From Promethearchaeota archaeon (GTDB taxonomy: Archaea > Asgardarchaeota > Lokiarchaeia > Sigyniarchaeales > SOKP01): a DNA stretch of 32,000 bases. Positions within the stretch are counted from its first letter, which is position 1; every line of letters begins with the position of its first letter. The notes under the pieces are model-generated. The model made no database searches, was not told the origin of the DNA, and saw only the letters and a list, made by a program, of their open reading frames with translations. The translations under genes were made by a program, and so were the position numbers. Below are positions 12,779-31,630 of this stretch, piece by piece. The stretch is taken from the NCBI GenBank assembly GCA_030606485.1, contig JAUWGH010000001.1:780001-812000 (forward strand), given 5' to 3'.

Positions 12779-15079
12779 TTAATTCTTAGTTTTGCTTCGT
12801 ATTTCTTCTATAATAGTGGCATATTTTTCAAGTAGTTTAATTAATTTTTCTTTATCAGGAACTCTTTTTAATTCTTTTTCAAATTTGGGATAATATTTAA
12901 TTAATTTATCATAAAAAGAATTTAGAGATTCTTGTAATTCGTTTTCATTTTTAATTTTCTTAGAAATTGATTTTAAAATATCTAAATATTTTGATTGTGT
13001 TAGACAAGAAGCTAGTTTTTTATAATAATAAATAACGGTTTTTGAATAATCTTCGGGATGGAAATTTATTAAATAATTATCTATATCGAAATCCCAATGC
13101 GGTATAAAGTTTATAAATTTATCATCAGGATTTTCTTTATTGTCTAAAAGATTTAATTCAAGATTTGATTTATTTAATTCCTCTAATAGAGGATACAAAA
13201 CACCTGAACTAACTTTTGTTTCTAATTCAATTATTGGGACAATCTCAGAGATTAAGAATTTATATTCTGGATATTGTTCGGGATTTTCAATCCGATAGAT
13301 ATATTCTTTTTTAATTAATTTAATAATTCTATCCTCAAGAAACTCATCATGCTCTTTTGTAAATGAAACCGTTTTTTCCTTTATAGATTCAGTATGTTTT
13401 TGCTCTGATATTACTTTTTTTGAAAAATTAGTAGAGAGAGATTGAATGAATTTATCTGAAGCTTTCTCTTTATCAATTTTTTTTTGAAGTTGCATTGCAT
13501 CACCAGGCTGTTTTTGAAGGGTTTCTACTAGTTGTTCTGATAGATAATGCCTTGCTTTTTTAGCAGCTTCTCCTTTCTTTTGAAATTTTTCGGTAATTGA
13601 AGTGAATTCAGCATATTTTCTTTCGGGACCTTCCTTTTCTTGTCGTGTTAATACTCTAAAATCAACTTTCTTGTCATCAATTTTACGAATAATTGAATAA
13701 ACAATTCCCTTAGATAATTGCGATGCTTTTATTAATTCTTTTTCAATTAAATCAATTGGAAAGGCTTCACCCCTTCGAATAAATTCATTTCTCAAAATTT
13801 TTAATATTGTTTCCATACTTTTTTCTTCTTCTTTTACAATCTCTTTCTGAATTCGCATAAACATTGAAGTTTCATGAGGTTTTAAGTAATAAACCAAAAT
13901 AGTAAGTCCTAAGAATATTATCATAATAATTGAAATTAAAAATCGATCATGCATTAATAATTCTGAAAACCCACCAATTTCTTGATTTGGAGTGCTAGTA
14001 GCTACAGCGAATCGTGATATGGTTTGTCCTAAAACACAAGCTAAAAAAAACATTATTAAACCGTCTTTTTTAAAGAATAAAATTCGCCATCCCAGAGTAC
14101 CTCCAATTTTTCGTATAATTCTTATTAAAAATATCATTGAAATCAAAAATTCAAAAATAAATAGATACCCAATAATATTTGAGGCTCCACCAAAAGCTCC
14201 TTTTAATGCATCTGATGTTTCTGGTAGAAGAATAGTATATAATGTCACTTGGTAAATTTGATAAAAAAATATGAAAAAAACAATTATAGCAAATGTAAAA
14301 TTATCAAATAATCCCGCTCTTCTGGTTTCTGCTCGCTTCCTAGTAAGAATGAATTCAATAATTATAAACACAATAGTTGTAATCAGTGAAATATATATTA
14401 ATGGCATTACTCTTTTCATTTCAATTAAATAAACTTCAGTTGATCCTATTGGATTTAAAGTTCCCAACAGATCTAGAGTGAGAAAAACAATAAAAGCTCT
14501 AAAAAACCAAGAAATAATTACTAAAAATCCTAAAATTAGAAAAGGAATTAAAAAGATTATGAAATTCCTAAAAATTGAATATTTTGACACTACTTTTGCC
14601 TCAATTTTAGTAGAAAATTTTCTTGAATACGTATAAAATCTTGAACTTTGTAAAATTAGCCAGATCATAGCTAATATTAAAAGAAAGCTCATGTAATTAA
14701 ATTGAAATAGAGTATCTACTAAGGAAAATAGAAAAAACCATCCCGTAATAAGTCCAGAAAAAATTACTATTTGCTTAATAGCAGTATTTTTTTCAAATAT
14801 AAATTGTCTTATTTTATCCACGCTAAATAATATAGAGAGTGAAAAATAAAAAAAAATTAATGCATTTCCAAAAATAAAAGGATCTCCAAACATCACAATT
14901 TGGAAAAAAATATTATCAGGATTATTAATATTAAAAAAAATCATAAAAGAAAAAAACAAAAAAATTCCAAATAACCCCCAAAATTTTTTTCCAAAATAAG
15001 ATTTTGGAGGTTCTTTGCCTTTTACATAAATCTCTTTATTGAAAATGACTCTTTTAAGATTATAATAAATGTTTTTCAT
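12779..15079 (-). CDS. Polytopic membrane protein (about 10 TM segments in the first ~400 aa) with a large cytoplasmic C-terminus containing two winged-helix-like repeats
   Basis: Hydrophobic segments counted by eye; two alignable ~75-aa repeats at about 13604-13816 and 13106-13339. No known family recognised. Confidence 0.8.
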   Translation of the reverse strand: MKNIYYNLKRVIFNKEIYVKGKEPPKSYFGKKFWGLFGIFLFFSFMIFFNINNPDNIFFQIVMFGDPFIFGNALIFFYFSLSILFSVDKIRQFIFEKNTAIKQIVIFSGLITGWFFLFSLVDTLFQFNYMSFLLILAMIWLILQSSRFYTYSRKFSTKIEAKVVSKYSIFRNFIIFLIPFLILGFLVIISWFFRAFIVFLTLDLLGTLNPIGSTEVYLIEMKRVMPLIYISLITTIVFIIIEFILTRKRAETRRAGLFDNFTFAIIVFFIFFYQIYQVTLYTILLPETSDALKGAFGGASNIIGYLFIFEFLISMIFLIRIIRKIGGTLGWRILFFKKDGLIMFFLACVLGQTISRFAVATSTPNQEIGGFSELLMHDRFLISIIMIIFLGLTILVYYLKPHETSMFMRIQKEIVKEEEKSMETILKILRNEFIRRGEAFPIDLIEKELIKASQLSKGIVYSIIRKIDDKKVDFRVLTRQEKEGPERKYAEFTSITEKFQKKGEAAKKARHYLSEQLVETLQKQPGDAMQLQKKIDKEKASDKFIQSLSTNFSKKVISEQKHTESIKEKTVSFTKEHDEFLEDRIIKLIKKEYIYRIENPEQYPEYKFLISEIVPIIELETKVSSGVLYPLLEELNKSNLELNLLDNKENPDDKFINFIPHWDFDIDNYLINFHPEDYSKTVIYYYKKLASCLTQSKYLDILKSISKKIKNENELQESLNSFYDKLIKYYPKFEKELKRVPDKEKLIKLLEKYATIIEEIRSKTKN

Positions 15080-15232: not shown

Positions 15233-16030
15233 ATGAAAATGGCAGTAGCTGGTAAGGGAGGTACAGGCAAAACATTAATTGCGGGAACATTAGCTAGATT
15301 ATTTGCTCAAGATGGTTATAAGGTTCTAGCTATTGATAATGACTCATCTATGAATTTAAGTTATTCTATAGGGATTGATGAATATATCCGTCAAAAGATA
15401 GTCCCAATAAAAGAAATGCTTGACCTTATAGAGCAAAGAACGGGACAAAGACCTGGTACAGCAAGTGGGGGAATATATAATATAAACCCTAAAGTCTCCG
15501 ATATTCCTGATAAATATAAAATCTATGGTCCTGATGGAGTTCAATTACTTGTTGTTGGTTCAATTGAGGAACCGGCCACGGGATGTCTTTGCCCAGAAAA
15601 TGTTCTAATTAGAACTCTTCTTTATAACCTTTTTGTGCAAAGAGATGAAGCAATAATTGTGGATTTTGAAGCTGGATTGGAACATTTGGGAAGAGGCACT
15701 GGTAAGGGAATAGAGATCATGCTTATTGCAACAGAACCGTCAATAAAGTCAATAGAATTAACTAAACATATACTAAAATTGTCAAAAGGATTAGGAGTAA
15801 AAAACAATTTAATTGTATTGAATAAAATTAAAGACGAAGCAGAATTAGAGATAATTAATAAAAAATTGAAAGAAATTGGATTAAATTCATTTCATGTTAT
15901 TCCTTTTGACCCAGAAATTGGAAAAGCTGATTTAGAGGGGGTTGCACCACTCGATTTTAATCCAAACTCAAAAGCCGTTCAATCGATTCGAGATTTGTAT
16001 AAAAAATTAAAAGAATTCAAACAAAATTAA
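15233..16030 (+). CDS. cooC: CooC/AcsF-type nickel-insertion ATPase (CO dehydrogenase / acetyl-CoA synthase maturation; MinD/ParA-like P-loop)
   Basis: Deviant Walker A GKGGTGKT, IDNDSSMNL, metal-binding GCLCP (CxC), VDFEAGLEHLGRG. Confidence 0.9.
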   Translation: MKMAVAGKGGTGKTLIAGTLARLFAQDGYKVLAIDNDSSMNLSYSIGIDEYIRQKIVPIKEMLDLIEQRTGQRPGTASGGIYNINPKVSDIPDKYKIYGPDGVQLLVVGSIEEPATGCLCPENVLIRTLLYNLFVQRDEAIIVDFEAGLEHLGRGTGKGIEIMLIATEPSIKSIELTKHILKLSKGLGVKNNLIVLNKIKDEAELEIINKKLKEIGLNSFHVIPFDPEIGKADLEGVAPLDFNPNSKAVQSIRDLYKKLKEFKQN

Positions 16031-16085
16031 TAGTAAAAAATTTATATATGAAAATTTGATTTTAGAGTATAGGGAAAAATTTTTT

Positions 16086-16349
16086 ATGAGCGAAGATAAT
16101 TTAAAACTTCAAGAATATGTCAGAAAAGCAATAGAACTCTTGTGTCAAAAGAACTTTTCAGATGTAGTTATATTAAGCTCTTATAAAATCAATTCCGTTT
16201 TACGAGAGTATTTTGGTGTAGATATTAAAGTGGATAGAGTTGGTCGAATGCTTGCGAATATTGCCAAGAAAAATCAATTAAAAAGACTTAAAACAAATAT
16301 TCCTAAATATTCTTTAAAAATCTCTCGTTTATCAAAACTTAAATTCTAG
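16086..16349 (+). CDS. Small basic hypothetical protein, possible winged helix-turn-helix
   Basis: 87 aa from ATG16086 (track starts at TTG16056). Three predicted helices (LQEYVRKAIELL / SSYKINSVLREYF / VDRVGRMLANIAKK) followed by a beta-hairpin-like LKRLKTNIPKYSL. Confidence 0.55.
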   Translation: MSEDNLKLQEYVRKAIELLCQKNFSDVVILSSYKINSVLREYFGVDIKVDRVGRMLANIAKKNQLKRLKTNIPKYSLKISRLSKLKF

Positions 16350-16371: not shown

Positions 16372-17787
16372 TTATATTTTTTTTACTTTCTTAATAGATT
16401 TTTGTAATGTTTCTAATTGAGAGGCTAATTTTTCAGTTTGTTCTTTAGTTACAGATAATTTATCTGAGATATTATTAATTTCCTCATTTAAGATCTCGTT
16501 GAATTTGGTTGATATTGTATTAACTTTCTGATTTATTCCCGATATTGTTTTTTCCGTATTTTCATTTGTATTATTAACAATTTCAGTTTGTTTATTTACA
16601 TCTTGAGAGATTTTTTCTTGAATTTTTTCCAAATCCTCAAAAATTTTTGAATTTTGTTTTATTTTTTCTCCAATTTCATTTATTTTTTGACTAATATTTT
16701 CATTGATAATTTTGACAATATCTTCAACGATAAGATCAATGTTATCATTAATTTCTTTTGTAAGTTCAATTTCAGAATCTAATCTTTCTTGTACTTGGTT
16801 TTTGATTTCCAATTTAAATTCTTCCATTTGAGTTGATAAAGTTTTTTCAAACCATTCTTCTACTTTTTTAATACCTAAATCTATTGAATTCTGCATAATA
16901 GAAATAGTATTAGCTATAAAAGCTGAACTCTTAGAAGTACCAACTGTAATATCATGCGTCCATTTATTTATTTTGTCTTGAAATGTTGGTAAAAAATTGT
17001 CTTTAAGTTCTTGGGTGCCCTTCACAAAACCATCTATAGTAGGCTTTAAGGGAGATTCCTCTTTCATTTCAACTATCTCTCCTTCAGTAGGTTTAGGAAT
17101 TTCTTGAAGGTCTCCAATTTCATCATATTCTTTTATTATAATGGGACTTTCTTTTTGGGATTCTTCAACTAGATTTTTAATAATTTTGAAAAAATCTAAG
17201 GAATCTGGAGGCTCGACTTCTACAACAATTTCATGATAATCACTTTTTTCACCTAATTTATAATTATCTAATCTGAAGGATTTAAACCCTAATGAATCGT
17301 TTTTTCCCATTTGGGAATGATCAAATACAACTGCAAAGGCATCGGGTGTTCCTTCCTTTTGCCAAAATAAATGATTTTTAATATCTGTATTTGTAAAAAT
17401 TAATCCTAATCTTGGGTGGCTATGATACCAACCAATTATAGACATATTCTTTTTATTAGCCTCTTCATCAATAGAAGCAAATTTCTTGTAATCTAGATCA
17501 TTAAATTCGATATCAATACTTGATCCATGATTTATAGGAACAGCTTCATAACAAATTAGATTTTTTCCTTTTTCTGCCTTTTTTCCGATACAAACACCTA
17601 GAACTTCTACATTTTTCTCAAGACCTTCGCTACCGAAGCGTAAAACATGAGAAATCATAGTAATATAAGCATCTGATTTTATTATTACTTTTCCTTCATG
17701 TGAAAAATCTTTATCAACTACTTTATCTTGAGAAAGTCTTTTGCCAGGTGGCTTAAGTCCTTTATCCAGGGGTGGTTCTTGAGACAT
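16372..17787 (-). CDS. JAMM/MPN domain protein (Rpn11/CSN5-like) with a long C-terminal helical stalk; paralog A
   Basis: EVLGVCIG (catalytic Glu) and GWYHSHPRLGLIFTNTD (HxHx7[T]x2D, 17383-17424); about 225 aa of coiled-coil-like C-terminus. Confidence 0.9.
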   Translation of the reverse strand: MSQEPPLDKGLKPPGKRLSQDKVVDKDFSHEGKVIIKSDAYITMISHVLRFGSEGLEKNVEVLGVCIGKKAEKGKNLICYEAVPINHGSSIDIEFNDLDYKKFASIDEEANKKNMSIIGWYHSHPRLGLIFTNTDIKNHLFWQKEGTPDAFAVVFDHSQMGKNDSLGFKSFRLDNYKLGEKSDYHEIVVEVEPPDSLDFFKIIKNLVEESQKESPIIIKEYDEIGDLQEIPKPTEGEIVEMKEESPLKPTIDGFVKGTQELKDNFLPTFQDKINKWTHDITVGTSKSSAFIANTISIMQNSIDLGIKKVEEWFEKTLSTQMEEFKLEIKNQVQERLDSEIELTKEINDNIDLIVEDIVKIINENISQKINEIGEKIKQNSKIFEDLEKIQEKISQDVNKQTEIVNNTNENTEKTISGINQKVNTISTKFNEILNEEINNISDKLSVTKEQTEKLASQLETLQKSIKKVKKI

Positions 17788-17790
17788 TCT

Positions 17791-19206
17791 TTAAGAACCT
17801 CCTTGATTTTTGTCGTTAATATCTTTCAATTTTTGAATATTATTAGACACTTCATCTAAGATTGAAAGAGTAGAATCTAAAGAACTAATAAGATCGTTTT
17901 GCTTCTTTTTTATTTCATTAATTTCCTTTATTAAAGGTTTTAGAGTTTTTTCTAATTGTTTTTTAATCTTTTCTGCGTTTGAATCTATTTCTTGCACCGT
18001 TTTATTACCTAGTTGATTAATTTTCCTGGAAACCTCATCAATTAATTTAGTATTTTGAATTATATGATTAGAATTATTCTCATAACTAGATTTTAATGAA
18101 GTAAATTTTTCTTTACTGTTATTGATTAATGAATCTGTTTCATTAATTAGTGTATTTATTTGTTCTGTGAATATTTTAGATATATTCGATTCAATAGTCT
18201 CTTTTAATTGGTGAATAGAACTTTTTAATGCATTTTTATTAATATCTAATGTGTCTAATTTATCATCAATATATGTTTCCATATCTCTAAATATGTCCAT
18301 AATTGCAAATTTAGTCCAGGTGTGTAATTCCCTTAGACCATTTGATAAATTTTCCTTTAGAGATATTAGACCTTTTCTAGTTTTTAGATTGATATCAATT
18401 GTTAATTTAGTTGTTTTTTGACCCCATTGGTTTAAATATCTAATTAATGGTTCAAAGAATGAATAAGTAAATTTTGAAATACCATCATTCAATGATTGCA
18501 TTAATTCCATTAAGTTTAAATCAGGTTGTTTTGCCATCATTTGACCTTGACTAGGAATAGAAATTTCTCCAAATATATCTGGAATCTCATTAATTTCTAA
18601 AATAAGAGGTTCTTTTTTATGTATGTTATCTATTAAATTTTTAATTTCATAATAAAATCCAATATTATCAGGAGGTTCTACGATATATTTTACATCATGA
18701 TAACTAGTTGGTATTTCCGTAAAAGATGGTTTATCTAATCGAAAGATTTTAAAACCCATATTTCCTTGCTCCTCCAATAGTTCGTGATCGAAGACAATAC
18801 CAATTGCACTGGGATTTGGATTTTGAAATCCTAACTGATTTATAAGGTCAACTGCTGAGAAAAAAACGCCCAAACCAGGGTGAGAGTGGTACCAACCAAC
18901 GGAAAACCAACCCTTATCAGCAACCTCTGCATCGATACTTGCAAATGATATATAATCTGCTTCAGCAAATTGTACTTCAATTTGACCTCCATGATTTATC
19001 GGAATTGCATCATGTACTATAACATCTTTAATTTCTCCAGACCCTTCTAATTCTCCTAACAATACACCCATGCATTCACTGTAATTATCAGGATCCTTAA
19101 TTTTTGAACCAAACCGTAAAACATGAACAAGCATTTTATAATAAGCTAATGGTTTAATGATTACCTTCGAGTTATCAATGAAATTTTGCTTTTGTGTGTG
19201 TGCCAT
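17791..19206 (-). CDS. JAMM/MPN+ domain protein (Rpn11/CSN5-like) with a long C-terminal helical stalk; paralog B
   Basis: ECMGVLLG and GWYHSHPGLGVFFSAVD (canonical HxHx7Sx2D, 18847-18888). ATG19206 is preferred over TTG19212. Confidence 0.92.
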   Translation of the reverse strand: MAHTQKQNFIDNSKVIIKPLAYYKMLVHVLRFGSKIKDPDNYSECMGVLLGELEGSGEIKDVIVHDAIPINHGGQIEVQFAEADYISFASIDAEVADKGWFSVGWYHSHPGLGVFFSAVDLINQLGFQNPNPSAIGIVFDHELLEEQGNMGFKIFRLDKPSFTEIPTSYHDVKYIVEPPDNIGFYYEIKNLIDNIHKKEPLILEINEIPDIFGEISIPSQGQMMAKQPDLNLMELMQSLNDGISKFTYSFFEPLIRYLNQWGQKTTKLTIDINLKTRKGLISLKENLSNGLRELHTWTKFAIMDIFRDMETYIDDKLDTLDINKNALKSSIHQLKETIESNISKIFTEQINTLINETDSLINNSKEKFTSLKSSYENNSNHIIQNTKLIDEVSRKINQLGNKTVQEIDSNAEKIKKQLEKTLKPLIKEINEIKKKQNDLISSLDSTLSILDEVSNNIQKLKDINDKNQGGS

Positions 19207-19412: not shown

Positions 19413-20069
19413 TTAATTGTAATCCTTGAATTCCTTTCCACAACTTGGGCAATGCTTTATCTGAAAACCACAGAAAGGACAAAAAATCTTTCCTAAAGCT
19501 CTTTCTTTTAACTCGTCTGTTTCTGCAGCATCTTTAGATGGAATCTTGGGAAGTTCTTTCTCAGTTGAAATTATTTCAGGAGATTTTTCTTGGATAGTTG
19601 ATTCTTTTTCTACATCATGTTTTTGAGAAACTGCTTTAGCTTTTGTTCTTTGGAGAAATTTTTCTCGTTCTGATAATTCTTCCTTAACCCATCCTTGAGT
19701 TCTAGGCCTTTTTAATTCTGATTCTGGAACCTTCTCTAACTGTGCTTCCTTTACTTCTTGAATTGGGATTATAACTTTCTTCTTATCTTTATTCTCTCTT
19801 GCTTGTCTCAATAAAAATTGAGTTGTTTTCATGATTTGATGAGGATTTATATTTGGGATTGCAACTGTTTTGAGGACCCAACTGACGATACGATTTCCAT
19901 TTGGTGTAATTCCCTCAACATTATCGTAAATATAAGAATCTATAATTGTGTCTCTTCCTTTCATTAATCTAGATGCCCATTTTTCATTAATTTGTCCTAA
20001 CTGTAATCTGTAGGAAGTCCCAGCAATTCCAAGCTGAGAAGTGAGTGGTTCAAAATCTTTTTCAGACAT
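19413..20069 (-). CDS. Hypothetical protein: N-terminal globular domain, charged linker, C-terminal zinc ribbon (CPFC-x6-CPSC)
   Basis: Translation from ATG20069 (track starts at TTG20081); terminal CxxC-x6-CxxC. Confidence 0.75.
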   Translation of the reverse strand: MSEKDFEPLTSQLGIAGTSYRLQLGQINEKWASRLMKGRDTIIDSYIYDNVEGITPNGNRIVSWVLKTVAIPNINPHQIMKTTQFLLRQARENKDKKKVIIPIQEVKEAQLEKVPESELKRPRTQGWVKEELSEREKFLQRTKAKAVSQKHDVEKESTIQEKSPEIISTEKELPKIPSKDAAETDELKERALGKIFCPFCGFQIKHCPSCGKEFKDYN

Positions 20070-20398: not shown

Positions 20399-22660
20399 AT
20401 GAAAAAATTGGAAGATTTTAATGAAAATGATGAGGATTTCAGTTTAATCGATTTATACCCTAAATATGTAATCAATTCTAAAGGTATACTTAAAGATTTT
20501 GATATTACATATATCGCAAGATCAATTAATAGAGAAACTGGATTGGAATTTGAGACTTGTGAGAAAATTGCTCAGGAAGTTCTCCGAAAAATTATTGGAC
20601 AAGGGTTAAAAAGAGTTTCTTCCACGTATATTAGAGAAATAGTATGCCTTGAATTAACTGCAAGAGGATTAGAAAAATTTAGAAACATTTATGCTCGCTA
20701 TATTAACATTAGTATGACCAAATTCTCTTTAGATGAGGATTTTATTGAAAAATTTAAAAAAATTCACCCAAAATGGGGTCCCCTAGGTTATATTACTTAT
20801 AAAAGAACTTATGCAAGATATATAGAAAAAGAAAACCGTAAGGAAGAATTTTGGGAAACACTGAGAAGGGTTGTTGAAGGATGTTTCTCAATTCAAAAGG
20901 AACATTGTGTAAAATTGGGTTTACCATGGAGCGAAGATAAAGCTCAAAAATCCGCTCAAATAATGTATCAAAAAATGTGGGATTTTAAATTTATTGCTCC
21001 AGGTCGTGGATTATGGATAATGGGAACCCCATTTATTGATAGACATGGCTCTATGGCCCTTAATAATTGCGGCTTTGCCTCAACTGAGGATATAGATATT
21101 AAAGGGACGATCCCATTTGAATGGACAATGGATGCATTAATGCTGGGTGTTGGTGTAGGATTTGACACAAAAGGGGCAGGAAAAATAATTATTAAGAAAC
21201 CAAAAGAAGATGATTTTCTATTTCGCATTCCAGATAGAAGAGAAGGATGGGTTGAAGCATTAAAGTATACTTTAGAGGCATATTTTTTTGAAAAAACCAT
21301 ACCAAAATTGGATTATTCCTTAATAAGACCGGCGGGGGAATTAATTAGAGGATTTGGAGGAATCGCCTCTGGACCAGAACCGCTTGAAAAAATGATTGAA
21401 AACATTAAGGATCTTTTAAACCAACGTATTGGAGATAAACTTCGTTCAACAGATATAGTCGATATCATGAATTTTATTGGTAAATGCGTAGTTGCCGGGA
21501 ATGTTCGCCGGAGTGCTGAAATAGCCCTTGGAGATATAAATGATACGGAATTTATAACTATGAAGCAAGATAAGGAGAAATTAACGTCCCACCGCTGGGC
21601 AAGTAATAATTCAATATTTGCAAAAATTGGTATGGACTATTCATTTGTTGCTGAACAAATTGCAAAAAATGGAGAGCCGGGTGTATTATGGTTAGAAAAT
21701 TCCAGAGCTTATTCAAGAATGGCTGAGCTACCCGATTATAAAGATAAGAAAGTGGCTGGCGTAAATCCTTGTGGAGAACAGAGCCTTGAATCATATGAGC
21801 TATGCTGCTTGGTGGAGTCCTTTCCTTCAAACCATGAGTCCTATGAGGAGTTTCAAGATACACTAAAATATGCATATCTTTATGCAAAATCAGTTACTTT
21901 ATTAAATACACATTGGAAGCAAACAAATGCAATTATGGGCAAAAACAGAAGAATTGGCACTTCCCAATCGGGAATAATTAATGCTTTTGTTAAGCATGGG
22001 CGTAGGGAAATATTTAAATGGTGTGAAAAGGGTTATAAATACTTAAAGGAATTAGATTCTAAATATTCAGATTGGCTAACTACCCCTAAGTCAATTAAGA
22101 TGACCTCAATAAAACCCAGCGGTACTGTAAGTTTACTTCCGGGAGTAACTCCAGGAATACATTATCCGCATTCTGAATATTATATACGCAGGATTCGCTT
22201 TAATGAAAATTCAGATTTGCTTCCTTTTCTGAGAGAAGCGGGATATCAAATTCATACAGATAAATACTCTCCCAACACCAGCGTTGTAGAATTCCCTATT
22301 CATGAGGAATATTTTGAAAGAGGAAAAAGTGACGTATCGATGTGGGAACAGTTAGAAAATGCTGCTGCATACCAGAAATATTGGGCTGATAATCAAGTGT
22401 CTATCACAGTTACTTTTAAAGAAAAAGAAGCAAAAGAGATTAAAGTTGCTTTAGAAATATTCGAAGATAAGTTGAAAGGAGTTGCATTCCTTCCCTTGAA
22501 CGAACACGGTTATGAACAAGCTCCTTATGAAGAAATTACACAAGAACAGTATCATGAAATGAAATCGAAATTAAAACCACTCAATCTGAGTACAGTTAAA
22601 AGTGAAGCACTGGGTGAAAGATTTTGTGATGCAGATTTCTGTGAGATTAAATTCAAATGA
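20399..22660 (+). CDS. nrdJ: Class II (adenosylcobalamin-dependent) ribonucleotide reductase, RTPR/monomeric-type, with N-terminal ATP-cone
   Basis: GRGLW, LNNCGF, VAGNVRRSAEI, NPCGEQSLESYELCCLVE (radical and redox Cys), TSIKPSGTVS, YWADNQVSITV, YEQAPYEEIT, C-terminal FCDADFC (CxxxxC shuttle). ATP-cone-like segment at about 20468-20668. GGGAGA lies upstream of the ATG. Confidence 0.95.
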   Translation: MKKLEDFNENDEDFSLIDLYPKYVINSKGILKDFDITYIARSINRETGLEFETCEKIAQEVLRKIIGQGLKRVSSTYIREIVCLELTARGLEKFRNIYARYINISMTKFSLDEDFIEKFKKIHPKWGPLGYITYKRTYARYIEKENRKEEFWETLRRVVEGCFSIQKEHCVKLGLPWSEDKAQKSAQIMYQKMWDFKFIAPGRGLWIMGTPFIDRHGSMALNNCGFASTEDIDIKGTIPFEWTMDALMLGVGVGFDTKGAGKIIIKKPKEDDFLFRIPDRREGWVEALKYTLEAYFFEKTIPKLDYSLIRPAGELIRGFGGIASGPEPLEKMIENIKDLLNQRIGDKLRSTDIVDIMNFIGKCVVAGNVRRSAEIALGDINDTEFITMKQDKEKLTSHRWASNNSIFAKIGMDYSFVAEQIAKNGEPGVLWLENSRAYSRMAELPDYKDKKVAGVNPCGEQSLESYELCCLVESFPSNHESYEEFQDTLKYAYLYAKSVTLLNTHWKQTNAIMGKNRRIGTSQSGIINAFVKHGRREIFKWCEKGYKYLKELDSKYSDWLTTPKSIKMTSIKPSGTVSLLPGVTPGIHYPHSEYYIRRIRFNENSDLLPFLREAGYQIHTDKYSPNTSVVEFPIHEEYFERGKSDVSMWEQLENAAAYQKYWADNQVSITVTFKEKEAKEIKVALEIFEDKLKGVAFLPLNEHGYEQAPYEEITQEQYHEMKSKLKPLNLSTVKSEALGERFCDADFCEIKFK

Positions 22661-22801
22661 ATAAAAATGAAATATCATTCAATTATTAAAAAGTCTAGAG
22701 ATTTTAGACAAATATTATTAAGTTTATTAAGTAGACAATCTTAATAATTGCGAAATACCAATACTCATTATATTACAATATAAAAAAAAGGTTGAAAGAT
22801 A

Positions 22802-24076
22802 ATGGTAAAGATTATTCATCTTGCAGATACTCATCTTGGTTTCAGATTAAGAAAGAACTTTAAAAATGACTGGTTTAAATTTGGTGAAATTCGTTGGTAT
22901 GAAAATGATTTTTATAAGAGATGGGATGATTTTTTTAATTATTGTATTGATAATAAAGATAATATTGATTTTATAGTTCATTCGGGGGATATTTTCCATA
23001 CTCCATTCGGAGAAAATCCATTTCCACCACCAGAACCGGCAAGAGAAGTTGTTGTTAAAAGCTTAAAAACTTTTTTTAAAGAAACTGAAAATAAAATTCC
23101 CATTATCTTAATTGATGGTAATCATGGTATTTATCAAGGATATAGATATTCAATTATGGATAGTATCACCTCCATCTTTCCAAAACTCCATTATTTTTCC
23201 GTCTGGGACTTAAAACATGCCATAACTAATTCTGAACCATTAATTGTGGAATTTCCAGAAAAAAGCACTCGATTTTATTTGTTTCCTTATTTTGAATTTA
23301 ATCTAAACAATGATATTAAAATTGATTATGATAAATGGATTGAAAAACAGAGACCTAAAGAAGATATGGTCGAAATTGCTGTAGTTCATGGATCTGATAT
23401 AGATAACACGCTTCACGAGAAAGTAAAGTCGTTCAATTACTCATATATTGCATTAGGTCATGAACATAACCAGAGAAAATTTTCTGGTAATGCTTATTAT
23501 TCAGGATCATTTGTACCACTTAATTTTGATGAGGTAAATCTTTCAAACGGGTATTTAGAAGTTATTATTGAAAAAAATAAGAAACCTGTGGTCAAGAATC
23601 ATATTTTCGAGAAAAATCGTGTTTTTGAAGAAATTGATATAGAAGTAGACCCATCAACTACAAATAATTCAATATTTTCTACCATAGATGAAAAAATTGA
23701 ACCATTTAAGACCCAAAAATGGGAAGGGGTTTCTGCTGCCCGATTAAAAATAATTTTTAGAGGTAACGTACCTCTTACAAGTTTTTGGAATTTGAGTGAA
23801 GAATTGAGAGCATATCAGTCCAGAATTATTAGTGGAGGGAGCTATAATATTTTACAACTTATTATCGACTGGCATGGAGTTTCGAAATATTTAGGTGATG
23901 AGTTAGCTCCAGAAATTTTAGAAGAATACATATTAAGTAATCCTAAAGAGGAATTTCTGGAATATATTCATGGAAAAATTAAACCAGCTGAAGGATATAA
24001 TGTAGATTTATTGGCAGAAATCGCAATAGAAGCAATTGAAACATCTTTAAAAAAATTTGGAGGAGAAACAGATTGA
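22802..24076 (+). CDS. mre11: Mre11/SbcD-family metallophosphoesterase nuclease
   Basis: Motifs DTHLG, GDIFH, GNH, VHGS and LGHEH retain all expected metal ligands; adjacent to rad50. Confidence 0.9.
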   Translation: MVKIIHLADTHLGFRLRKNFKNDWFKFGEIRWYENDFYKRWDDFFNYCIDNKDNIDFIVHSGDIFHTPFGENPFPPPEPAREVVVKSLKTFFKETENKIPIILIDGNHGIYQGYRYSIMDSITSIFPKLHYFSVWDLKHAITNSEPLIVEFPEKSTRFYLFPYFEFNLNNDIKIDYDKWIEKQRPKEDMVEIAVVHGSDIDNTLHEKVKSFNYSYIALGHEHNQRKFSGNAYYSGSFVPLNFDEVNLSNGYLEVIIEKNKKPVVKNHIFEKNRVFEEIDIEVDPSTTNNSIFSTIDEKIEPFKTQKWEGVSAARLKIIFRGNVPLTSFWNLSEELRAYQSRIISGGSYNILQLIIDWHGVSKYLGDELAPEILEEYILSNPKEEFLEYIHGKIKPAEGYNVDLLAEIAIEAIETSLKKFGGETD

Positions 24077-26184
24077 AAATTAAAAGAGTGGAATTTAAAA
24101 ATTTCAAATGCTTTCCAGATTTAATACTTCCTGAAAAAGAGACCGAGAATTTCTCCGAAGGTTTATTTTTAATACAAGGAACAACTCCCGAAAGATCAAA
24201 TAGTTTCGGGAAAACGAGCTTTGTTGAAGGGATTCTTTTTGGCTTATTCGGACCAAAAAGTACAATTTTATCAATTAATAATTTAATTACTTTTGGTCAA
24301 GATAAAGGAGAGATAAAGATAATATTTGAACTTGATGGGGTCGATTATATGATACAGAGATTATTAAATAGAACGAGTTCAAGTGGTTCCCAAAAGTTAA
24401 GAAATTATATAAGAGTTAATAATACTTGGAAATCCGACAACACGATTAAAATTGAAGAATTATTAGAGATTAAGAGAGAACAAGCATTACAAACATCTTT
24501 TGTAAAGCAGGGTGAGATAGAGAGTTTGGCATCAGCTAGCCCAGCGAAATTACGGGATTTAATAATAGATTTATTTCGTTTAAACATTGTTGACTATGCT
24601 TCAGATTATCTTAAGAATATAAATAAAGATGCTATAAATCGGATAAAATCTATAAATAGAAATTACATTGCTCCTTCTGAAATTGATAAGGATATTAATA
24701 GAAAAGATCAACAATTAACAGGAAATAATATAGAAATTAAAAATAATTCTAAAAAAATCGATACCTTAAAAACTCAATTAATAAACTTTCCTGATAAGGA
24801 AAAATTAACAGAACTCAAAGATATTAAGCAAAAAATTGAACAATTTGTTGGCAAAATTGAGGTATTCTTAGAGCAATTAGCCAATAAATTAAAACCTTTA
24901 AGCTCAGATGATAATATCCAAGAGTCCAATATTGATCATTTTATAAAAATAAAAGAAAATGAAATCACTAAATTAGAAAGTAATAAAGATACACTGTCAG
25001 AAGCATTAAAAAAAGTTCTTTCAGAAATAAATAAGAAAGAAGGAATTATTTCACAGATTGAAAAAAATAAAGGTAAAATAAATAAAAACTTCGATTTTAA
25101 AGGAGGGAAAAGAATAGCTAAGTGCCCAACTTGTACAAGAGAAATAAGTTATCAAGATGCTCAAGAGATTTTAAATCACTATGATAATGAGATTAATGCT
25201 TTAATAAATGATGTAAATAAATTAAAACCAGATTTGGAAGAATTAGAAAATAACAAACAAGATATAGAAAATAAGTTGGATGAATTAAACTCAGTTTTTA
25301 GAAACTTGCAAGACATTAAAGAGATTTATACTAAAAAGAAAAAATTTGAAATAGAAATAGAAAATAAACGATTGATAAACACAAATTTATTGAGAAAATT
25401 TAATGTATCAACAGAAAAGGAATTTCTAGAAAAATTTAACGTGAAAAATTTAGATCATTTAAGAGAAAAAATAATTAAAATCGATAGTGAAATAAATTCT
25501 TTAGTAAACGTAAATAAGAGAATCGAAAGTGAAAATAATTACTTAAAGAATGAAATTCAGGAGCTCAATTTAAAAAAGAAGAATATGATCAAACTTCGAG
25601 ATGAAAGAGAACAGTTGGAAATGAAAATTAAGCATGTCGATAAAAATAAAGAACTAGTAAAAGGATTTATTACAGAGTATATGGTTGAAAAGAGACTGAT
25701 CCATAATATTCAATATGAAACCAAAAGATTTCTAAAATATTTTTCAGGTGGTCAATATTCAAATCTAGATTTAAAGAGTGTGGATAAAGGACGAGGTATA
25801 AAAATTGCTATATTTGATGAATTTAGCCAAACTATGAAGGATATTGATTTCCTTAGTGGAGGAGATAAAGTTGCTCTTGGATTTGCTTTAAGAATGGGGA
25901 TCTCAGAGTTAATGACAAAAATCAGACCAACCAAAAATTCCCCAAAGAAAAATCCTAAAATTGATTTTATGATTTTAGATGAACCATTAGCAGCATTAGA
26001 TAAAGATCGTAGAAAACAAGTATTAACAACTCTTGAAAGTCAAAAAGATTTCAATCAAATTTTTTTAATTACACATACAGATATTCCAGAAGAAATTAAG
26101 CCAAATTTTATAAAAATCAAGAAAAATTTTGAAAATGGGTTAAGTTCAGCCGTTTATATAGATAAAGAAAAAAATCAATTATAA
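24073..26184 (+). CDS. rad50: Rad50/SbcC-family ABC ATPase with zinc hook; short (703 aa)
   Basis: Extended Walker A G-TTPERS-NSFGKT, Q-loop FVKQGEI, central CPTC hook, signature LSGGD, Walker B/D-loop ILDEPLAALD, H-loop ITH. 4-nt overlap with mre11; GGAGG 9 nt upstream of the TTG start. Confidence 0.9.
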   Translation: MKIKRVEFKNFKCFPDLILPEKETENFSEGLFLIQGTTPERSNSFGKTSFVEGILFGLFGPKSTILSINNLITFGQDKGEIKIIFELDGVDYMIQRLLNRTSSSGSQKLRNYIRVNNTWKSDNTIKIEELLEIKREQALQTSFVKQGEIESLASASPAKLRDLIIDLFRLNIVDYASDYLKNINKDAINRIKSINRNYIAPSEIDKDINRKDQQLTGNNIEIKNNSKKIDTLKTQLINFPDKEKLTELKDIKQKIEQFVGKIEVFLEQLANKLKPLSSDDNIQESNIDHFIKIKENEITKLESNKDTLSEALKKVLSEINKKEGIISQIEKNKGKINKNFDFKGGKRIAKCPTCTREISYQDAQEILNHYDNEINALINDVNKLKPDLEELENNKQDIENKLDELNSVFRNLQDIKEIYTKKKKFEIEIENKRLINTNLLRKFNVSTEKEFLEKFNVKNLDHLREKIIKIDSEINSLVNVNKRIESENNYLKNEIQELNLKKKNMIKLRDEREQLEMKIKHVDKNKELVKGFITEYMVEKRLIHNIQYETKRFLKYFSGGQYSNLDLKSVDKGRGIKIAIFDEFSQTMKDIDFLSGGDKVALGFALRMGISELMTKIRPTKNSPKKNPKIDFMILDEPLAALDKDRRKQVLTTLESQKDFNQIFLITHTDIPEEIKPNFIKIKKNFENGLSSAVYIDKEKNQL

Positions 26185-26204
26185 AAAAATGAGAGTGAAA
26201 AAAA

Positions 26205-27962
26205 ATGATAATAAATATAAATGCATTAGAAAGAGTTATTGAAATTAATATTGAAAAATATTATCCCGTCCATAGTTATATAAAATTAGAATGCCCAAAA
26301 GACAAACCAAAATATACTATTTTATGTATGAACCAACAGGTTATGACTGTTGAAGAATATATTGAATTAAGACGTCAAACTGCAAATATTGAAATCAACG
26401 AATATTTGATAAAATTACTTCAGACTGGATTAAAATATGTCTTATTTGCAGCGCCTATCCTTTTAATAGACCATGAAAAAGAAACGGAAGAGTTGAAAAA
26501 ACCTAAACCTGATAAAAATAATTATGTAATAAAACGTAATGTACTTATTGAAATTGAGAAGCTTATGCAAGGTGGAGTGTTATCTCCCCATACTTCAGAA
26601 ATTTCGAAAGATCAAAGCGATATCCCGGTTCTATTGGAAAATATTTTTCCACAATCAAATGGAGTTTTTATTGGACGTTTACTGTATGATAAAACAAATG
26701 TTTATATTCCAATCAAATCATTACCGGTTCATTTAGGAATTATTGGAACGACAGGCTCAGGAAAATCTAATTTAATGCAAGTTATGATTAATGGAGCAGT
26801 TGATCATAATTTAGAAGTAAAAACTAAGAATTTAACAAATATTCCATTAGTTTCTTCACTTGCAATAGACCCACATGATGAATATGCTTTAGGACCAGAA
26901 GGGAGGGGATTATATCACCTTGTTAATTTATTAGATTTAAAAATTAGAAATGATATTTTTGGTTCTTTTTTCTATTTATATCCAAGGGGAACAAGAATTC
27001 AAAGCATATTATCTCCTTTTTCTTTAGAATGTGTTATAAATTACGAGGAAATAACTCCATTGGATGTATTAAATGTTCAAAGTTTTACTGGGGTACAATC
27101 TGAAGTTATGGAAGCAGAACATTATGTTGCTCATGATGATTGGATTGAAAATATATTAACCGGTAATTTAACCTCATCTGGACACCATGATGCTTCTATA
27201 GCCGCTGTTAGAAGAAGATTGCGTCCTATTGAAAGATCAAATATTTTTCGGCCCCAATCAGCGAATAGTTCGACATTACCAGAGATTATTTACGCTTTAG
27301 AAAGTGGTAAAATCTTGGATTTTAATTGTTCCCTGTTAAGTGATTTTGAAATGTTTCTTTTTAATACAGTTGTGGCAAGAACAATTTTCAATATTAGAAA
27401 AGCACTAAAAGCGTCAGCTACTATGACTGATTTTAAAGCTCAATTATACTCTCGTTTACCCAACTTATTTGTTAAAAGTTATGATAATAAATTGAACATA
27501 TACATTAAGAAAGGAAATGAAGTTAAAGATCCAACAGATATGCCAATTGTAGTTTTTACAATCGAAGAAGCCCCATCTATACTCAATCCAGATTTGATGA
27601 GAGGACCAAATATTTTCAAAGATATCGCAAGACAAGGAAGAAAATTTCATATTTCATTGGCTGTGATTAGTCAACAGATTTCTACATTAGATAATGCAAT
27701 AATTTCAAATCTTAATACATATATTGATTTACCTGTTGGTAGTGATAAAGAGAGAAGAGGGCTTATTGATAATGCTTCAAGCTCAATCCAGATAAATGAT
27801 CTTAAATCTTTGGAGGGGACATTAGGCGTTTCAATAATAAACGGAAATTGGCTTACAAAATTTCAAAAGATCATTATTCCAAGATATAAAGATCATTTTG
27901 AAGAAAATAAAGCAAAATATGGTATATATAAATCAAAAGGTACGAAGACTCCCTTAATTTAA
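26205..27962 (+). CDS. herA: HerA-family (FtsK/HerA) ATPase/helicase
   Basis: HLGIIGTTGSGKSN, IDPHDEY, Walker B variant TIEEAP, IARQGRKFHISLAVISQ; located in the mre11-rad50-nurA operon. Confidence 0.9.
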   Translation: MIININALERVIEINIEKYYPVHSYIKLECPKDKPKYTILCMNQQVMTVEEYIELRRQTANIEINEYLIKLLQTGLKYVLFAAPILLIDHEKETEELKKPKPDKNNYVIKRNVLIEIEKLMQGGVLSPHTSEISKDQSDIPVLLENIFPQSNGVFIGRLLYDKTNVYIPIKSLPVHLGIIGTTGSGKSNLMQVMINGAVDHNLEVKTKNLTNIPLVSSLAIDPHDEYALGPEGRGLYHLVNLLDLKIRNDIFGSFFYLYPRGTRIQSILSPFSLECVINYEEITPLDVLNVQSFTGVQSEVMEAEHYVAHDDWIENILTGNLTSSGHHDASIAAVRRRLRPIERSNIFRPQSANSSTLPEIIYALESGKILDFNCSLLSDFEMFLFNTVVARTIFNIRKALKASATMTDFKAQLYSRLPNLFVKSYDNKLNIYIKKGNEVKDPTDMPIVVFTIEEAPSILNPDLMRGPNIFKDIARQGRKFHISLAVISQQISTLDNAIISNLNTYIDLPVGSDKERRGLIDNASSSIQINDLKSLEGTLGVSIINGNWLTKFQKIIIPRYKDHFEENKAKYGIYKSKGTKTPLI

Positions 27963-27988
27963 ATAGTAAAATAAAAAGTGGATTATTT

Positions 27989-29152
27989 GTGGGGTTAAAA
28001 AAATATAAATTAATAGAATTAGAAGAATCACTGAAAAAGGCAGAAATACCTGCTCAAATAGACGAATTAAAGAAAAAACACGTTCAGTGGACTAAGGAAG
28101 AAAAAGAATTAAGAGATAAATATAAAGAAGAACTTGAAAAAGAAAAAACAGATATTATTATTGAACAAATGAAGTATACGCCTATTAAAGGCGTGGACGA
28201 AACATTTTTTAAGGAAGGAGGGTTATTAGTTGGATTTGATGAAAGTCAAAATTCAAAGATTGGCACTTATGCAAGAGTTTCATGCTTTAAATTCGGTGAA
28301 AGTCAGGTAAGTTATGAAGACGGAAGATATAAATATAGAGATTATATCTATGAGCCATTATTTGGATATTTAGAAGATAGCTATCAAAAAATTAAAATTT
28401 ATACTGATGCAATAGAATATTTTGTAAAAAATTTAGAAGATGAATTCAAAGGAACCTTTTTAGAACATTCAGTTACCGAAATAAGAAAATGGTATGAAAA
28501 AGTATTTCCCACGGAAACAGGATTAGAATGGAAACATAATTTACCTTCTGTAGGTCATGTTGCTGATCGTATTAGAACAGCAGATGAATTATTATGCACC
28601 GTTATAAGAATGAAACAAATTAAGACTGAATTTCCAGATCGAGATATTATATTTTTAGGAGATGGTATTAGTGCTTTTAGACCTCACATTTTTCCCCCAA
28701 TTCATTTTGTTCAATTTTTTCTTAAATTTCTCAAGGAATATAAATTAAAATATTATACTTTTTCAAAAACTTGTAGATTACGTGAAAAAGATACTGGTGT
28801 TTTTATTTTACCTGTGTTTTCTAAAATTATTGAAAAAGATCCATTTATTGTAGAGATACCACAAAAACGTTCAGTAAGCAACTCCCACCTTGTAAGATTG
28901 ATAAAAAGAGATATGCCTGCCTTGAGATTTGACGTTCCAAGAGAGATTGATTTGAATGGGGCAATTGCTATTATTAAAACAATTATCCCATTTTCTCCAC
29001 TTGGTTATCCATTATGTCTAGAACATGCTCATAATGCAAGTACTCTAACGAATTTGGAATGGAGGATTTTAAATATTAAATTTAGAGGGACCCAAGAAGA
29101 CCCTAGGACAAAAAATTTAGTTACAAATTTAAGAAAGTATGTTATATCTTAA
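27989..29152 (+). CDS. nurA: NurA-family nuclease (divergent)
   Basis: VGFDESQ (cf. AVDGS), FLGDG, FSKT, and GYPLCLEHAH (cf. GYPxxLxxAH); directly after herA. Confidence 0.8.
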   Translation: MGLKKYKLIELEESLKKAEIPAQIDELKKKHVQWTKEEKELRDKYKEELEKEKTDIIIEQMKYTPIKGVDETFFKEGGLLVGFDESQNSKIGTYARVSCFKFGESQVSYEDGRYKYRDYIYEPLFGYLEDSYQKIKIYTDAIEYFVKNLEDEFKGTFLEHSVTEIRKWYEKVFPTETGLEWKHNLPSVGHVADRIRTADELLCTVIRMKQIKTEFPDRDIIFLGDGISAFRPHIFPPIHFVQFFLKFLKEYKLKYYTFSKTCRLREKDTGVFILPVFSKIIEKDPFIVEIPQKRSVSNSHLVRLIKRDMPALRFDVPREIDLNGAIAIIKTIIPFSPLGYPLCLEHAHNASTLTNLEWRILNIKFRGTQEDPRTKNLVTNLRKYVIS

Positions 29153-29209
29153 AAATAAATCTTCATTTTTCTAAAATATAATATTTAGGATTATTCTAGT
29201 AGATGATAA

Positions 29210-30007
29210 ATGGCGAAGATTATATTTTTCCAAGCTCATCCTGATGATTTAGAGTTTAATTGTGCTCAATTAATGCATTATCTTGCCATAAAGAGCAAAA
29301 GAAAATATATTATTAAAATTGTTTCAATAACAAAAGGAGAATTTGGGCTTCCGGGTGCTAAATATGATAAGTTTAAAGGCAAATTCCTAGCAAAAGTCAG
29401 AACTAGGGAATTATATAAAGCTCAAAGTATTCACGGAATATCTCCCAAAAATATTGTTTTTTTGGGTTATATTGATGGTTTTGTAAAATTTAATAAAGAT
29501 TTCATTAATAGAATTGCGGATTATATTAGAAAAGAAAAACCGGATATAATTTTTGCCCCAGAACCGATATATACCTGGTATTATCATATGGATCATGTAA
29601 ATACTGGGAAGGCAATATTTTATATTATCTATAATAAATTAATTGATTATATCCCAATTCTCTATTTTTATTCATCTCTAAGTCCCAATTTTTTTTTCCC
29701 CTTTAAAAAAGAAAATATTAGCTTAGTAAATCAATTACTCGCATGCCATAAAACTCAATACTGGCTAATGAATTATATGATGTTTATTTATAAACCGATA
29801 ATGAAATTAGCTGGAAGGAAAGTAAATGGTTGGAAATATGCCGAACCTTTTCGACGGATTTATTTCGGCAAGGAAAATACGAAAAAATACAAAATATCAT
29901 TGATAACACGTATTTTCAGTCATTTTTTTTCTAGTCTTCCTTTTTACAAAGCGAAATATCCACAAGAGATATTGAAAAAACTTAAGAGAGAAAAAAATCA
30001 GAAATAA
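29210..30007 (+). CDS. PIG-L/LmbE-family N-acetylglucosaminyl deacetylase
   Basis: AHPDDLE, ITKGEFG, RTRELY, IFAPEP and HMDH metal/catalytic motifs. Confidence 0.9.
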   Translation: MAKIIFFQAHPDDLEFNCAQLMHYLAIKSKRKYIIKIVSITKGEFGLPGAKYDKFKGKFLAKVRTRELYKAQSIHGISPKNIVFLGYIDGFVKFNKDFINRIADYIRKEKPDIIFAPEPIYTWYYHMDHVNTGKAIFYIIYNKLIDYIPILYFYSSLSPNFFFPFKKENISLVNQLLACHKTQYWLMNYMMFIYKPIMKLAGRKVNGWKYAEPFRRIYFGKENTKKYKISLITRIFSHFFSSLPFYKAKYPQEILKKLKREKNQK

Positions 30008-30682: not shown

Positions 30683-31630
30683 ATGACAGTTATTATTCCA
30701 AAAAAAGCATATTTAACAATTGTTGCAGCCGCAGTTAGATTTGCTAATGCACGAATACCAAAAGATGATTGGTTGGAAGCTAGTGGCGTGTTAATTGGTA
30801 AGAATGTTGGTGATGATGTGGTAATTTCAGCAGCGCATCCTATTATGCACCAAGAATTAGACAAAAATGCTGTGATGGATCAATACAAATGGAAAGATGA
30901 AGATTATGAGGCACTCTCTATAATTGATGATGAGGCTTTTTCAAGAGGAGAATTCACCGTTGGATGGTATCATAGTCACCCCGGTTTTAAAGTAATGATG
31001 TCTCATATCGATATTAGAACAACATTGAGTTATCAAACAAATAATCCATTAGCTATTTCACTAGTGTTTAATCATATGAGATTAATAAAACAAATTGAAT
31101 TGCCTGATAAAAAAGGAGACCCAGATATTCCTTTAGAAAATGATCCAGGTTTTAAGATTTTTCGATTAGATGATGTAAGTGGAATTGAAGCAAGTTATCA
31201 TCCTACCGATTATAAAATAGAAGGATATGAGAGTATGACGCAATTAATTCAAACAACTCAAGCTTTTATTATCGATGTAACAAATCTACTCCCTAAAGAA
31301 GGTCTAATAGAGACGTATCAGAATCAAGTGAATAAATCAATAGAGGAATTAAATTCTCAATTAATTGGAACAGAAGAATATCTCAAAACACTTGCAAGAG
31401 AGGGAGCAACTTCGAGGATTCCAGAAGTCCTATTGAATCAAACTAGGGATATAAATAAATTTGTTGAAAGAGCAAATAAAAAAATTGAAAAAATGAAAGA
31501 AATTTTAGATTACTTAGAGTATAAAGAAAGAAATATAATTATACATCAAGCTTTAGAAGTAATTAGTCTGTGGGAACAAAAAGTAGAAAATTTAGAAACT
31601 GACTTACGTGCAATATCTCAGAAATTTTAA
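30683..31630 (+). CDS. JAMM/MPN+ domain protein (Rpn11/CSN5-like) with a shorter helical C-terminus; paralog C
   Basis: EASGVLIG and GWYHSHPGFKVMMSHID (30971-31012); GFKIFRLD is shared with paralog B (GFKSFRLD in A). ATG30683 (MTVIIPKKAY) aligns with the MPN beta-1 of the paralogs; the track start at 30557 overlaps the divergent gene. Confidence 0.92.
   Translation: MTVIIPKKAYLTIVAAAVRFANARIPKDDWLEASGVLIGKNVGDDVVISAAHPIMHQELDKNAVMDQYKWKDEDYEALSIIDDEAFSRGEFTVGWYHSHPGFKVMMSHIDIRTTLSYQTNNPLAISLVFNHMRLIKQIELPDKKGDPDIPLENDPGFKIFRLDDVSGIEASYHPTDYKIEGYESMTQLIQTTQAFIIDVTNLLPKEGLIETYQNQVNKSIEELNSQLIGTEEYLKTLAREGATSRIPEVLLNQTRDINKFVERANKKIEKMKEILDYLEYKERNIIIHQALEVISLWEQKVENLETDLRAISQKF

Follow-up and report, generated by a model that had tools for sequence, protein, structure and literature searches.

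The DNA analyzed here (the window) was a 32,000-nucleotide (nt) stretch covering positions 780,001 to 812,000 of contig JAUWGH010000001.1 (GenBank assembly GCA_030606485.1), and it belonged to a 3.75-Mb Promethearchaeota genome (GTDB lineage Lokiarchaeia; Sigyniarchaeales; SOKP01) with a G+C content of about 28%. Two adjacent, co-oriented genes, B (upstream) and A (downstream), encoded paralogous proteins of the same length and architecture: each of them began with an MPN domain resembling those of Rpn11 and CSN5, which was followed by a conserved linker and a single predicted helix some 220 residues long. The features of this B/A tandem, together with those of four neighboring genes, are collected in the table.

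Table. Features of the B/A tandem and of the neighboring genes p222, JABC, p97, and mem766 (positions counted from the first letter of the window)
Feature	Position	Strand	Description
Gene B	17791..19206	-	Predicted MPN+ (JAMM) protease on a long helical stalk; 471 amino acids (aa); ATG at 19206; upstream gene
B general-base Glu44 codon	19075-19077	-	From translation
B JAMM motif codons H107-S-H109-x7-S117-x2-D120	18847..18888	-	From translation; columns invariant in alignments
B stalk, residues 246-467	17806..18471	-	Single predicted alpha-helix (AlphaFold2 secondary structure)
Shine-Dalgarno sequence GGAGGT for A	17797..17802	-	In last B codons, encoding Gly-Gly
Gene A	16372..17787	-	B paralog of same architecture; 471 aa; downstream gene
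A motif codons H122-S-H124-x7-T132-x2-D135	17383..17424	-	Thr at canonical Ser position
A stalk, about residues 250-468	16384..17040	-	Helicity predicted from alignment to B stalk and from periodicity
p222	19413..20069	-	Just upstream of B; conserved N-terminal domain of about 100 aa, linker with short motifs, C-terminal CPxCG..CPxCG zinc ribbon
JABC	30683..31630	+	Third MPN+ paralog, about 316 aa; MPN plus helical tail of about 130 aa; Pfam JAB 52.8 bits
p97	16056..16349	+	Small protein, convergent with A; probably winged-helix-like
mem766	12779..15079	-	About 10 transmembrane segments; C-terminal half (about 370 aa) cytosolic; beyond p97

The stop codon TAA of B (17793-17791) and the start codon ATG of A (17787-17785) were separated by 3 nt, and the GGAGGT sequence at 17802-17797 preceded this ATG by 9 nt. 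The two translations had four sequence blocks in common (HVLRFGS, PINHG, GFKxFRLD, and VEPPD), and they differed at the active site: B carried the canonical E..HxHx7Sx2D motif (E44/H107/H109/S117/D120), while A presented Thr in place of Ser (E61/H122/H124/T132/D135). An earlier note, made from the letters of the window, had described all of these features, namely adjacent co-oriented paralogs of about 470 aa with a 3-nt gap, a Shine-Dalgarno sequence inside the upstream gene, the four shared blocks, and the Thr-for-Ser difference; each was recovered when coordinates, distances, and translations were re-read from the sequence. A and B were 31% identical end to end (E 4e-58) and 40% identical in the MPN part, where no other pairing of the host genome's five MPN paralogs reached as high a value.

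Rpn11/CSN5-like heads and long helical stalks

Both heads passed the gathering cutoff (22.5 bits) of the Pfam family JAB (PF01398), with 52.3 bits for B and 45.5 bits for A, and both scored lower on the Prok-JAB and haloarchaeal desampylase models. The nearest solved sequences were Caldiarchaeum Rpn11 (CsRpn11), eukaryotic Rpn11, and CSN5, then BRCC36, with AMSH more distant: (i) the best solved match of the B sequence alone was CsRpn11 (3e-10) and (ii) the B profile matched CsRpn11 (2.8e-14), Rpn11 (4.6e-12), BRCC36 (8e-11), and CSN5 (4e-10). The profiles of B and A retrieved MPN+ families only, with no Rpn8, CSN6, or Abraxas among the matches; of all 56 A-profile matches, the MPN ones were Rpn11, CSN5, BRCC36, and CsRpn11, and none was an Rpn8, CSN6, or eIF3 chain. 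Judged from these sequence comparisons, the likeness between A and B, their passing of Pfam JAB, and their kinship with Rpn11 and CSN5 lie far beyond chance.

An AlphaFold2 model, made for B only and built on 33 orthologues (mean predicted local distance difference test score, pLDDT, 74.8), displayed the MPN domain at residues 14-197, a poorly ordered linker carrying an invariant E-x-N-E...F-G...P motif, and the single helix at residues 246-467. The best Foldseek match of this model was Rpn11 in the Rpn8-Rpn11 crystal (4o8x_B; E 2.8e-9, template modeling score by target 0.69), and further matches were CSN5, BRCC36, eIF3h, and CsRpn11. The Ins-1 segment of A and B had an Rpn11-like length, and the long Ins-2 was absent from both but present in the third paralog JABC. 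The view of the earlier note that these MPN domains stand nearer to Rpn11/CSN5/BRCC36 than to short prokaryotic JAB proteins was thus borne out by the family scores, the solved relatives, and the fold.

The hydrophobic periodicity of the two tails, and that of both family averages, was 3.63 residues and not 3.5 as in a heptad; apolar residues covered about one-third of the helix circumference (three of nine 40-degree bins, giving a seam of about 120 degrees), and the remaining faces were rich in Asn, Ser, Thr, Lys, and Glu. We read this seam as a probable helix-helix contact of a nearly untwisted, hendecad-like type. The 'coiled-coil stalk' of the earlier note was accordingly kept in part: a long helical stalk was found in both proteins, but no classical heptad coiled coil. 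Profiles of the tails also matched apolipoprotein, MCP, the ZorA tail, spike HR1, and designed bundles; under the hendecad-like reading of the seam, these matches amount to a long-helix resemblance and are probably compositional.

The two tails could be aligned over their whole length, and both were better conserved in the proximal third and at the distal tip than in the variable middle. The A tail measured 230-248 residues after the conserved linker proline in 78 species at an identity of only about 33%, and the B tail measured at least 254 residues and was often extended. The lengths of the two tails did not covary (Spearman -0.01), a comparison that is uninformative given the near-constant length of A. 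A straight helix of 222 residues, as in the B model, would span about 33 nm by arithmetic.

As a separate observation, the C-terminus of A ended across species in a conserved short motif, I[TS]DFR[NQ]L[TK], and the neighboring proteins p97 and JABC likewise ended in conserved motifs (SSLxFF and LSKKF, respectively); all three could be docking tails.

Conservation of the tandem, decay of the A site, and origin of the pair

The synteny scan was applied to one genome per species and comprised 80 loci; f2 and f28 below denote the sister families of the host family (f1). B was followed by A in every locus where the contig permitted assessment (n=77), the gap between them was -11 to +17 nt in 75/77 loci, and in 57/77 loci a Shine-Dalgarno-like motif was present no more than 20 nt from the start of A. 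Whole-genome searches found B in 116/126 genomes of the host's GTDB family, in 4/13 and 1/1 genomes of the two sister families, and in 0/10 genomes of other families of the class; no full-length pair or copy was found in the 25 other Asgard families of the phylum sample. The tight tandem was kept in five f2/f28 loci (gaps -26 to +13 nt), and in two f2/f28 loci the second copy was still B-like with an intact site. In these five loci, p222, JABC, and p97 were not adjacent to the tandem, mem766 was present once, and p97 was present once at a distance; the conserved unit is therefore the pair itself. Synteny in relatives, which the earlier note had proposed as a check, was thereby found, with the order B then A in all 77 assessable loci of the scan and with the tandem in f2/f28.

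Some of the loci bore the NCBI labels Thor-, Odin-, Hod-, or Hermodarchaeota (as recorded), and their neighborhoods were indistinguishable from those of Loki type. The orthologues were named by NCBI only as 'Mov34/MPN/PAD-1 family protein' or 'hypothetical', and literature searches found no description of the B/A pair. About 10 metagenome studies of cold seeps, marine sediments, and the subsurface contained near-identical DNA.

The Gly-Gly encoded at the end of B was considered as a ubiquitin-like diglycine tail, and this candidate was rejected. Many B orthologues ended in Gly-Gly plus 0-2 residues and others in Lys/Glu-rich strings; since A started within 17 nt of the B stop and a GGAGG-type motif was present there in 57/77 loci, the most plausible origin of the Gly-Gly is the Shine-Dalgarno sequence of A, of which it would be a footprint.

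The two active sites had different fates. All five catalytic residues of B (EHHSD) were kept in 80/80 orthologues at 35-93% identity, whereas the A site was intact in 36/78 species (a count including the Ser-to-Thr form of this genus) and degenerate in 42/78. At least eight degenerate A patterns were observed, including EHRSD, QHHSD, ESHSE, ELHSG, E[IL]RTT, QCHxD, and E[ILV]HTD, and the degenerate and intact states required at least six changes on the A tree. A evolved faster than B (median identity 33% vs 40%) and was the fastest gene of the neighborhood, and it remained full length despite the loss of its site.

In a tree of the MPN domains, A, B, and JABC were each monophyletic, and A and B fell together on one side of a branch with a Shimodaira-Hasegawa-like approximate likelihood ratio support of 91.8. 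Tree and alignments indicate that A and B are sister paralogs derived from a Lokiarchaeial duplication, which runs parallel to the eukaryotic MPN+/MPN- pairs and is not their ancestor: A and B were the closest paralogs of each other, their profiles matched MPN+ families alone, and the pair was found in one order of Lokiarchaeia only. The 'archaeal precursor-like state' suggested by the earlier note was hence not supported as ancestry, and the idea holds as a parallel only.

Further MPN genes were seen in the host genome and its relatives. All five MPN genes of the host genome had complete or near-complete JAMM sites, and two of them were additional intact MPN+ paralogs at G000:C10:884587-887925 (L004) and G000:C8:323596-326928 (L005): one encoded 515 aa with a C-terminal half resembling tetratricopeptide repeats, and the other encoded 388 aa with a Lys/Glu-rich helical tail. 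Three loci (L008:3-1100, L031:946-2163, and L088:6098-6838) contained extra stalkless A-like or B-like MPN open reading frames of 160-246 aa just upstream of the full-length pair, and the stalkless copy of L088 had a degenerate site.

Proposed function, rival explanations, and known relatives

The reading that we favor, with a confidence slightly above even, is that B and A form a heterodimeric JAMM isopeptidase on a long rod, with B as the catalytic subunit and A as its obligatory partner. One coupled message would yield B and A in equal amounts and so lead to a heterodimer, in which the Rpn11-like heads would pair and the helices of about 220 residues would run alongside each other, forming a long two-stranded rod with almost no twist. 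B, a predicted zinc isopeptidase, would do the cutting, and A would support or regulate it, its own catalysis being dispensable as in Rpn8 or Abraxas. The rod would act as a rigid spacer with its tips docked elsewhere and its heads about 30 nm away, a role suggested by a rod whose length is fixed and whose distal tips are conserved. The likeliest substrates would be conjugates or precursors of the host ubiquitin-like protein, and a possible source of them exists in the host genome, which encodes a ubiquitin-family protein, an E2, and E1-like enzymes; a ubiquitin-like C-terminal tail as the substrate is suggested by the Rpn11-like groove with Ins-1. A fuller version, which we hold to be unlikely, describes a fixed-length 'stand-off' isopeptidase that fastens its tips to a cellular structure (possibly the membrane-protein or the zinc-ribbon neighbor) and removes ubiquitin-like marks about 30 nm off with its heads, and it adds an independent and ongoing birth of an MPN+/MPN- pair, so that the step behind Rpn11/Rpn8-type pairs would be observable through living intermediates, with A intact, then changed from Ser to Thr, then dead.

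The binding of A to B was inferred mainly from genetics, i.e., from the translational coupling, the co-occurrence of the two genes, and the decay of the A site while the protein was kept. Prediction of the full-length B+A complex with paired alignments gave ipSAE (interaction prediction score from aligned errors) values of 0.60, 0.58, and 0.60, as against 0.00 for three controls, and the verdict was 'weak support'; the ipSAE mark was reached by 58/80 solved complexes and by 2/110 mismatched pairs. Agreement between the B+A runs extended to at least 52% of contacts, and the pLDDT of the partner was at least 67. The pass may stem from the likeness of B and A to solved MPN heterodimers. The stoichiometric A/B heterodimer claimed by the earlier note is thus backed by the conserved order and gap, the Shine-Dalgarno motif, the tandem in f2/f28, and an invariant B site beside a decaying A site, while the complex prediction lent it weak support.

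Several observations weigh against a B/A heterodimer that acts as a ubiquitin-directed isopeptidase: (i) ipSAE values of 0.60 or lower were found in only 7/80 solved complexes and in both passing mismatches, the score was weak, and no interface was reported; (ii) the prediction covered B+A alone and is compatible with homodimers; (iii) the expression evidence was a single 276-nt metatranscriptome contig inside B (from one of four RNA-labelled runs), which is a weak sign of transcription and not of co-transcription; (iv) the host and 35 other species kept a complete A site, and A may therefore act as another enzyme rather than as a scaffold; (v) the periodicity of 3.63 and the apolipoprotein-type profile matches also fit a surface-binding amphipathic helix; and (vi) the ubiquitin-family gene (C10:752621-752812), the E2 gene (C10:380617), and the E1-like genes (one at C10:382109) of the host were not near the pair (C10:796-799 kb), and no ubiquitin-like, E1, E2, or RING E3 gene was found in the 80 conserved neighborhoods.

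The points on homodimers and on the A site lead to the explanation that A and B are separate enzymes, each with its own homodimeric rod and its own substrates, and are adjacent through co-regulation only. It would account for the 36/78 species (host included) with a complete or near-complete A site and for the two f2/f28 loci with an intact, B-like second copy, and a precedent is given by CsRpn11, which acts alone and is monomeric in solution (PMC6043591). We nevertheless consider this explanation rather improbable: the loss of metal ligands from A in at least eight ways, with full length and a fixed tail retained, is unexpected for a stand-alone enzyme, the near-zero spacing with its translational coupling was conserved, and the heteromer prediction, though rated weak and made for the heteromer only, reached 0.60 against 0.00 for the best control.

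Alternatively, the tails might be amphipathic helices of apolipoprotein or perilipin type, resting on a membrane or lipid surface and anchoring the MPN heads there, which would suit the non-heptad periodicity, the profile matches to apolipoprotein A-IV and A-I (E 9e-9 to 1e-4), the sub-threshold Pfam matches to Apolipoprotein, Perilipin, Phasin, and YtxH, and the presence of a polytopic membrane protein as a usual neighbor. This explanation appears quite improbable, because the apolar face was narrow and the remainder polar, a pattern more in keeping with a seam between helices than with a face half buried in lipid; moreover, the database matches were to generic long helices, and the membrane-protein neighbor was missing from 4/5 loci outside family f1. 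Very little probability was given to a pair whose main role is that of a rod for structure or scaffolding (resembling a cytoskeletal element or serving as a tether), with the MPN heads as protein-binding modules and proteolysis secondary: the A tail is fixed in length despite its low identity, the tips are conserved, and the MPN- proteins Rpn8, CSN6, and eIF3f/h are pure scaffolds in eukaryotes, but the invariance of the B catalytic residues in 80/80 orthologues at such divergence points to selection on catalysis.

Eukaryotic MPN proteins act as paralog heterodimers (Rpn11/Rpn8, CSN5/CSN6, and BRCC36/Abraxas), and the heterodimeric isopeptidase favored here for B/A was compared with them. BRCC36-Abraxas is the closest analogue in architecture, while Rpn11 and CsRpn11 are the closest in sequence. 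As is proposed for B/A, whose architecture and asymmetric site decay fit this type, BRCC36 with Abraxas or KIAA0157 (in BRCA1-A and BRISC) joins an MPN+ protein to a paralogous partner whose own site is dispensable; the helices of these MPN proteins pair with each other, whereas A/B pairing was predicted weakly. The coiled-coil segment of BRCC36 is far shorter than about 220 residues, whereas the B/A helices reach that length with a periodicity of 3.63, and A is a recent sister of B and not an old MPN- family. BRCC36 was described as active only when assembled with its partners (PMC12731174). It was among the sequence and fold matches of the pair, scoring below Rpn11 and CsRpn11; no Abraxas or KIAA0157 chain was among the A/B profile matches, and orthology to BRCC36/Abraxas was not supported. 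The K63 specificity, the super-dimer, and the other subunits of BRISC had no counterpart evidence for B/A.

Among eukaryotic proteins, A and B were matched best, in sequence and in fold, by members of Rpn11-Rpn8 and CSN5-CSN6. These pairs follow the same logic of one active and one inactive subunit, but they have short helices entering the helical bundle of the lid, whereas B and A each have one long C-terminal helix and derive from an independent duplication. A scan restricted to 20 proteins of the window matched none of them to a PCI family. Since A is not of Rpn8, CSN6, or Abraxas type and arose by a Lokiarchaeial duplication, the pair belongs neither with the PCI-type nor with the BRCC36-type pairs. 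CsRpn11 of Caldiarchaeum subterraneum (PDB 6FJU/6FJV) resembles B as an archaeal Rpn11-like MPN+ protein with Ins-1 and without long Ins-2, but it consists of one protein of about 200 aa that is a monomer in solution and is encoded beside Ub, E1, E2, and E3 (PMC6043591), whereas B/A is duplicated, stalked, and without an adjacent ubiquitin-system gene. The same 2018 structural paper stated that an MPN heterodimer organization was not known in archaea (PMC6043591).

If the favored heterodimer is correct, a close relative of the eukaryotic enzymes would have independently evolved a pair like theirs, within the class of archaea closest to the cultured Asgard models. The species series captured every stage of the catalytic loss of A and thus offers a natural series on why MPN proteases often need a dead twin. 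We know of no JAMM enzyme described with a fixed-length rod of about 33 nm; such a rod hints that ubiquitin-like marks are removed in a spatially restricted way, in cells with ubiquitin, E1, and E2 and with no known lid.

Neighboring genes

The usual neighbors of the pair in the 80 loci (one family) were p222 (75/80), JABC (69/80), p97 (69/80), and mem766 (64/80). A six-gene system uniting these four with the pair was considered and is not claimed; the five f2/f28 loci kept the tandem alone, and the wider gene cluster may partly reflect synteny within a single family. The arrangement in the host genus differed from that of most relatives by two insertions, of which most relatives had neither: (i) a ribonucleotide reductase-Mre11-Rad50-HerA-NurA-PIG-L block (20399-30007) separating JABC from p222 and (ii) a MinD/CooC-like ATPase gene (15233-16030) between p97 and mem766. 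JABC accordingly lay 11 kb from the pair in the window, while it was usually divergent from p222 at a distance of 150-300 nt.

For p222, no Pfam or NCBIfam match was found, the Atlas search gave its own cluster only, and Foldseek with its model gave nothing at E <= 0.001; its best VIA match was a designed protein (Z 6.7), and the PH/EVH1-like rows (Z 4-5) lay below the noise level. For p97, a sub-threshold match to DUF5797 was obtained in 10/10 orthologues, together with linker-histone and eWH hints. For mem766, no Pfam family was matched, and the Atlas features of its C-terminal half gave nothing at 0.76. Comparison of p97 with the cytosolic part of mem766 or with p222 gave hhalign probabilities of about 1% or lower.

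The class II ribonucleotide reductase of the inserted block (20399-22660) was 753 aa long, and its 97%-identical orthologue from the same genus (L006:3501-6806) was a frame of 1101 aa, an intein-sized difference.

The JAMM motif of JABC was intact in all 61 complete copies. In eight species, an insert of 30-32 nt lay inside the JAMM codons of JABC, between those for HSHPGF and K[VI]MMSHID, and its removal restored the frame; the positions, all on the minus strand of the locus, were L012:6466-6543, L013:6615-6692, L015:6494-6571, L032:928-1005, L038:6489-6566, L041:6510-6587, L047:6486-6563, and L060:6499-6576. The JABC copy of the window itself was without insert. When the insert was folded with its flanks, the exons paired with each other in one helix, a second helix of 4 bp (GGCU/AGCU) was bordered by two A-rich bulges, one on each strand, and the inner hairpin showed compensatory changes. 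The insert thus resembles an intron of the bulge-helix-bulge type, here within a protein-coding gene.

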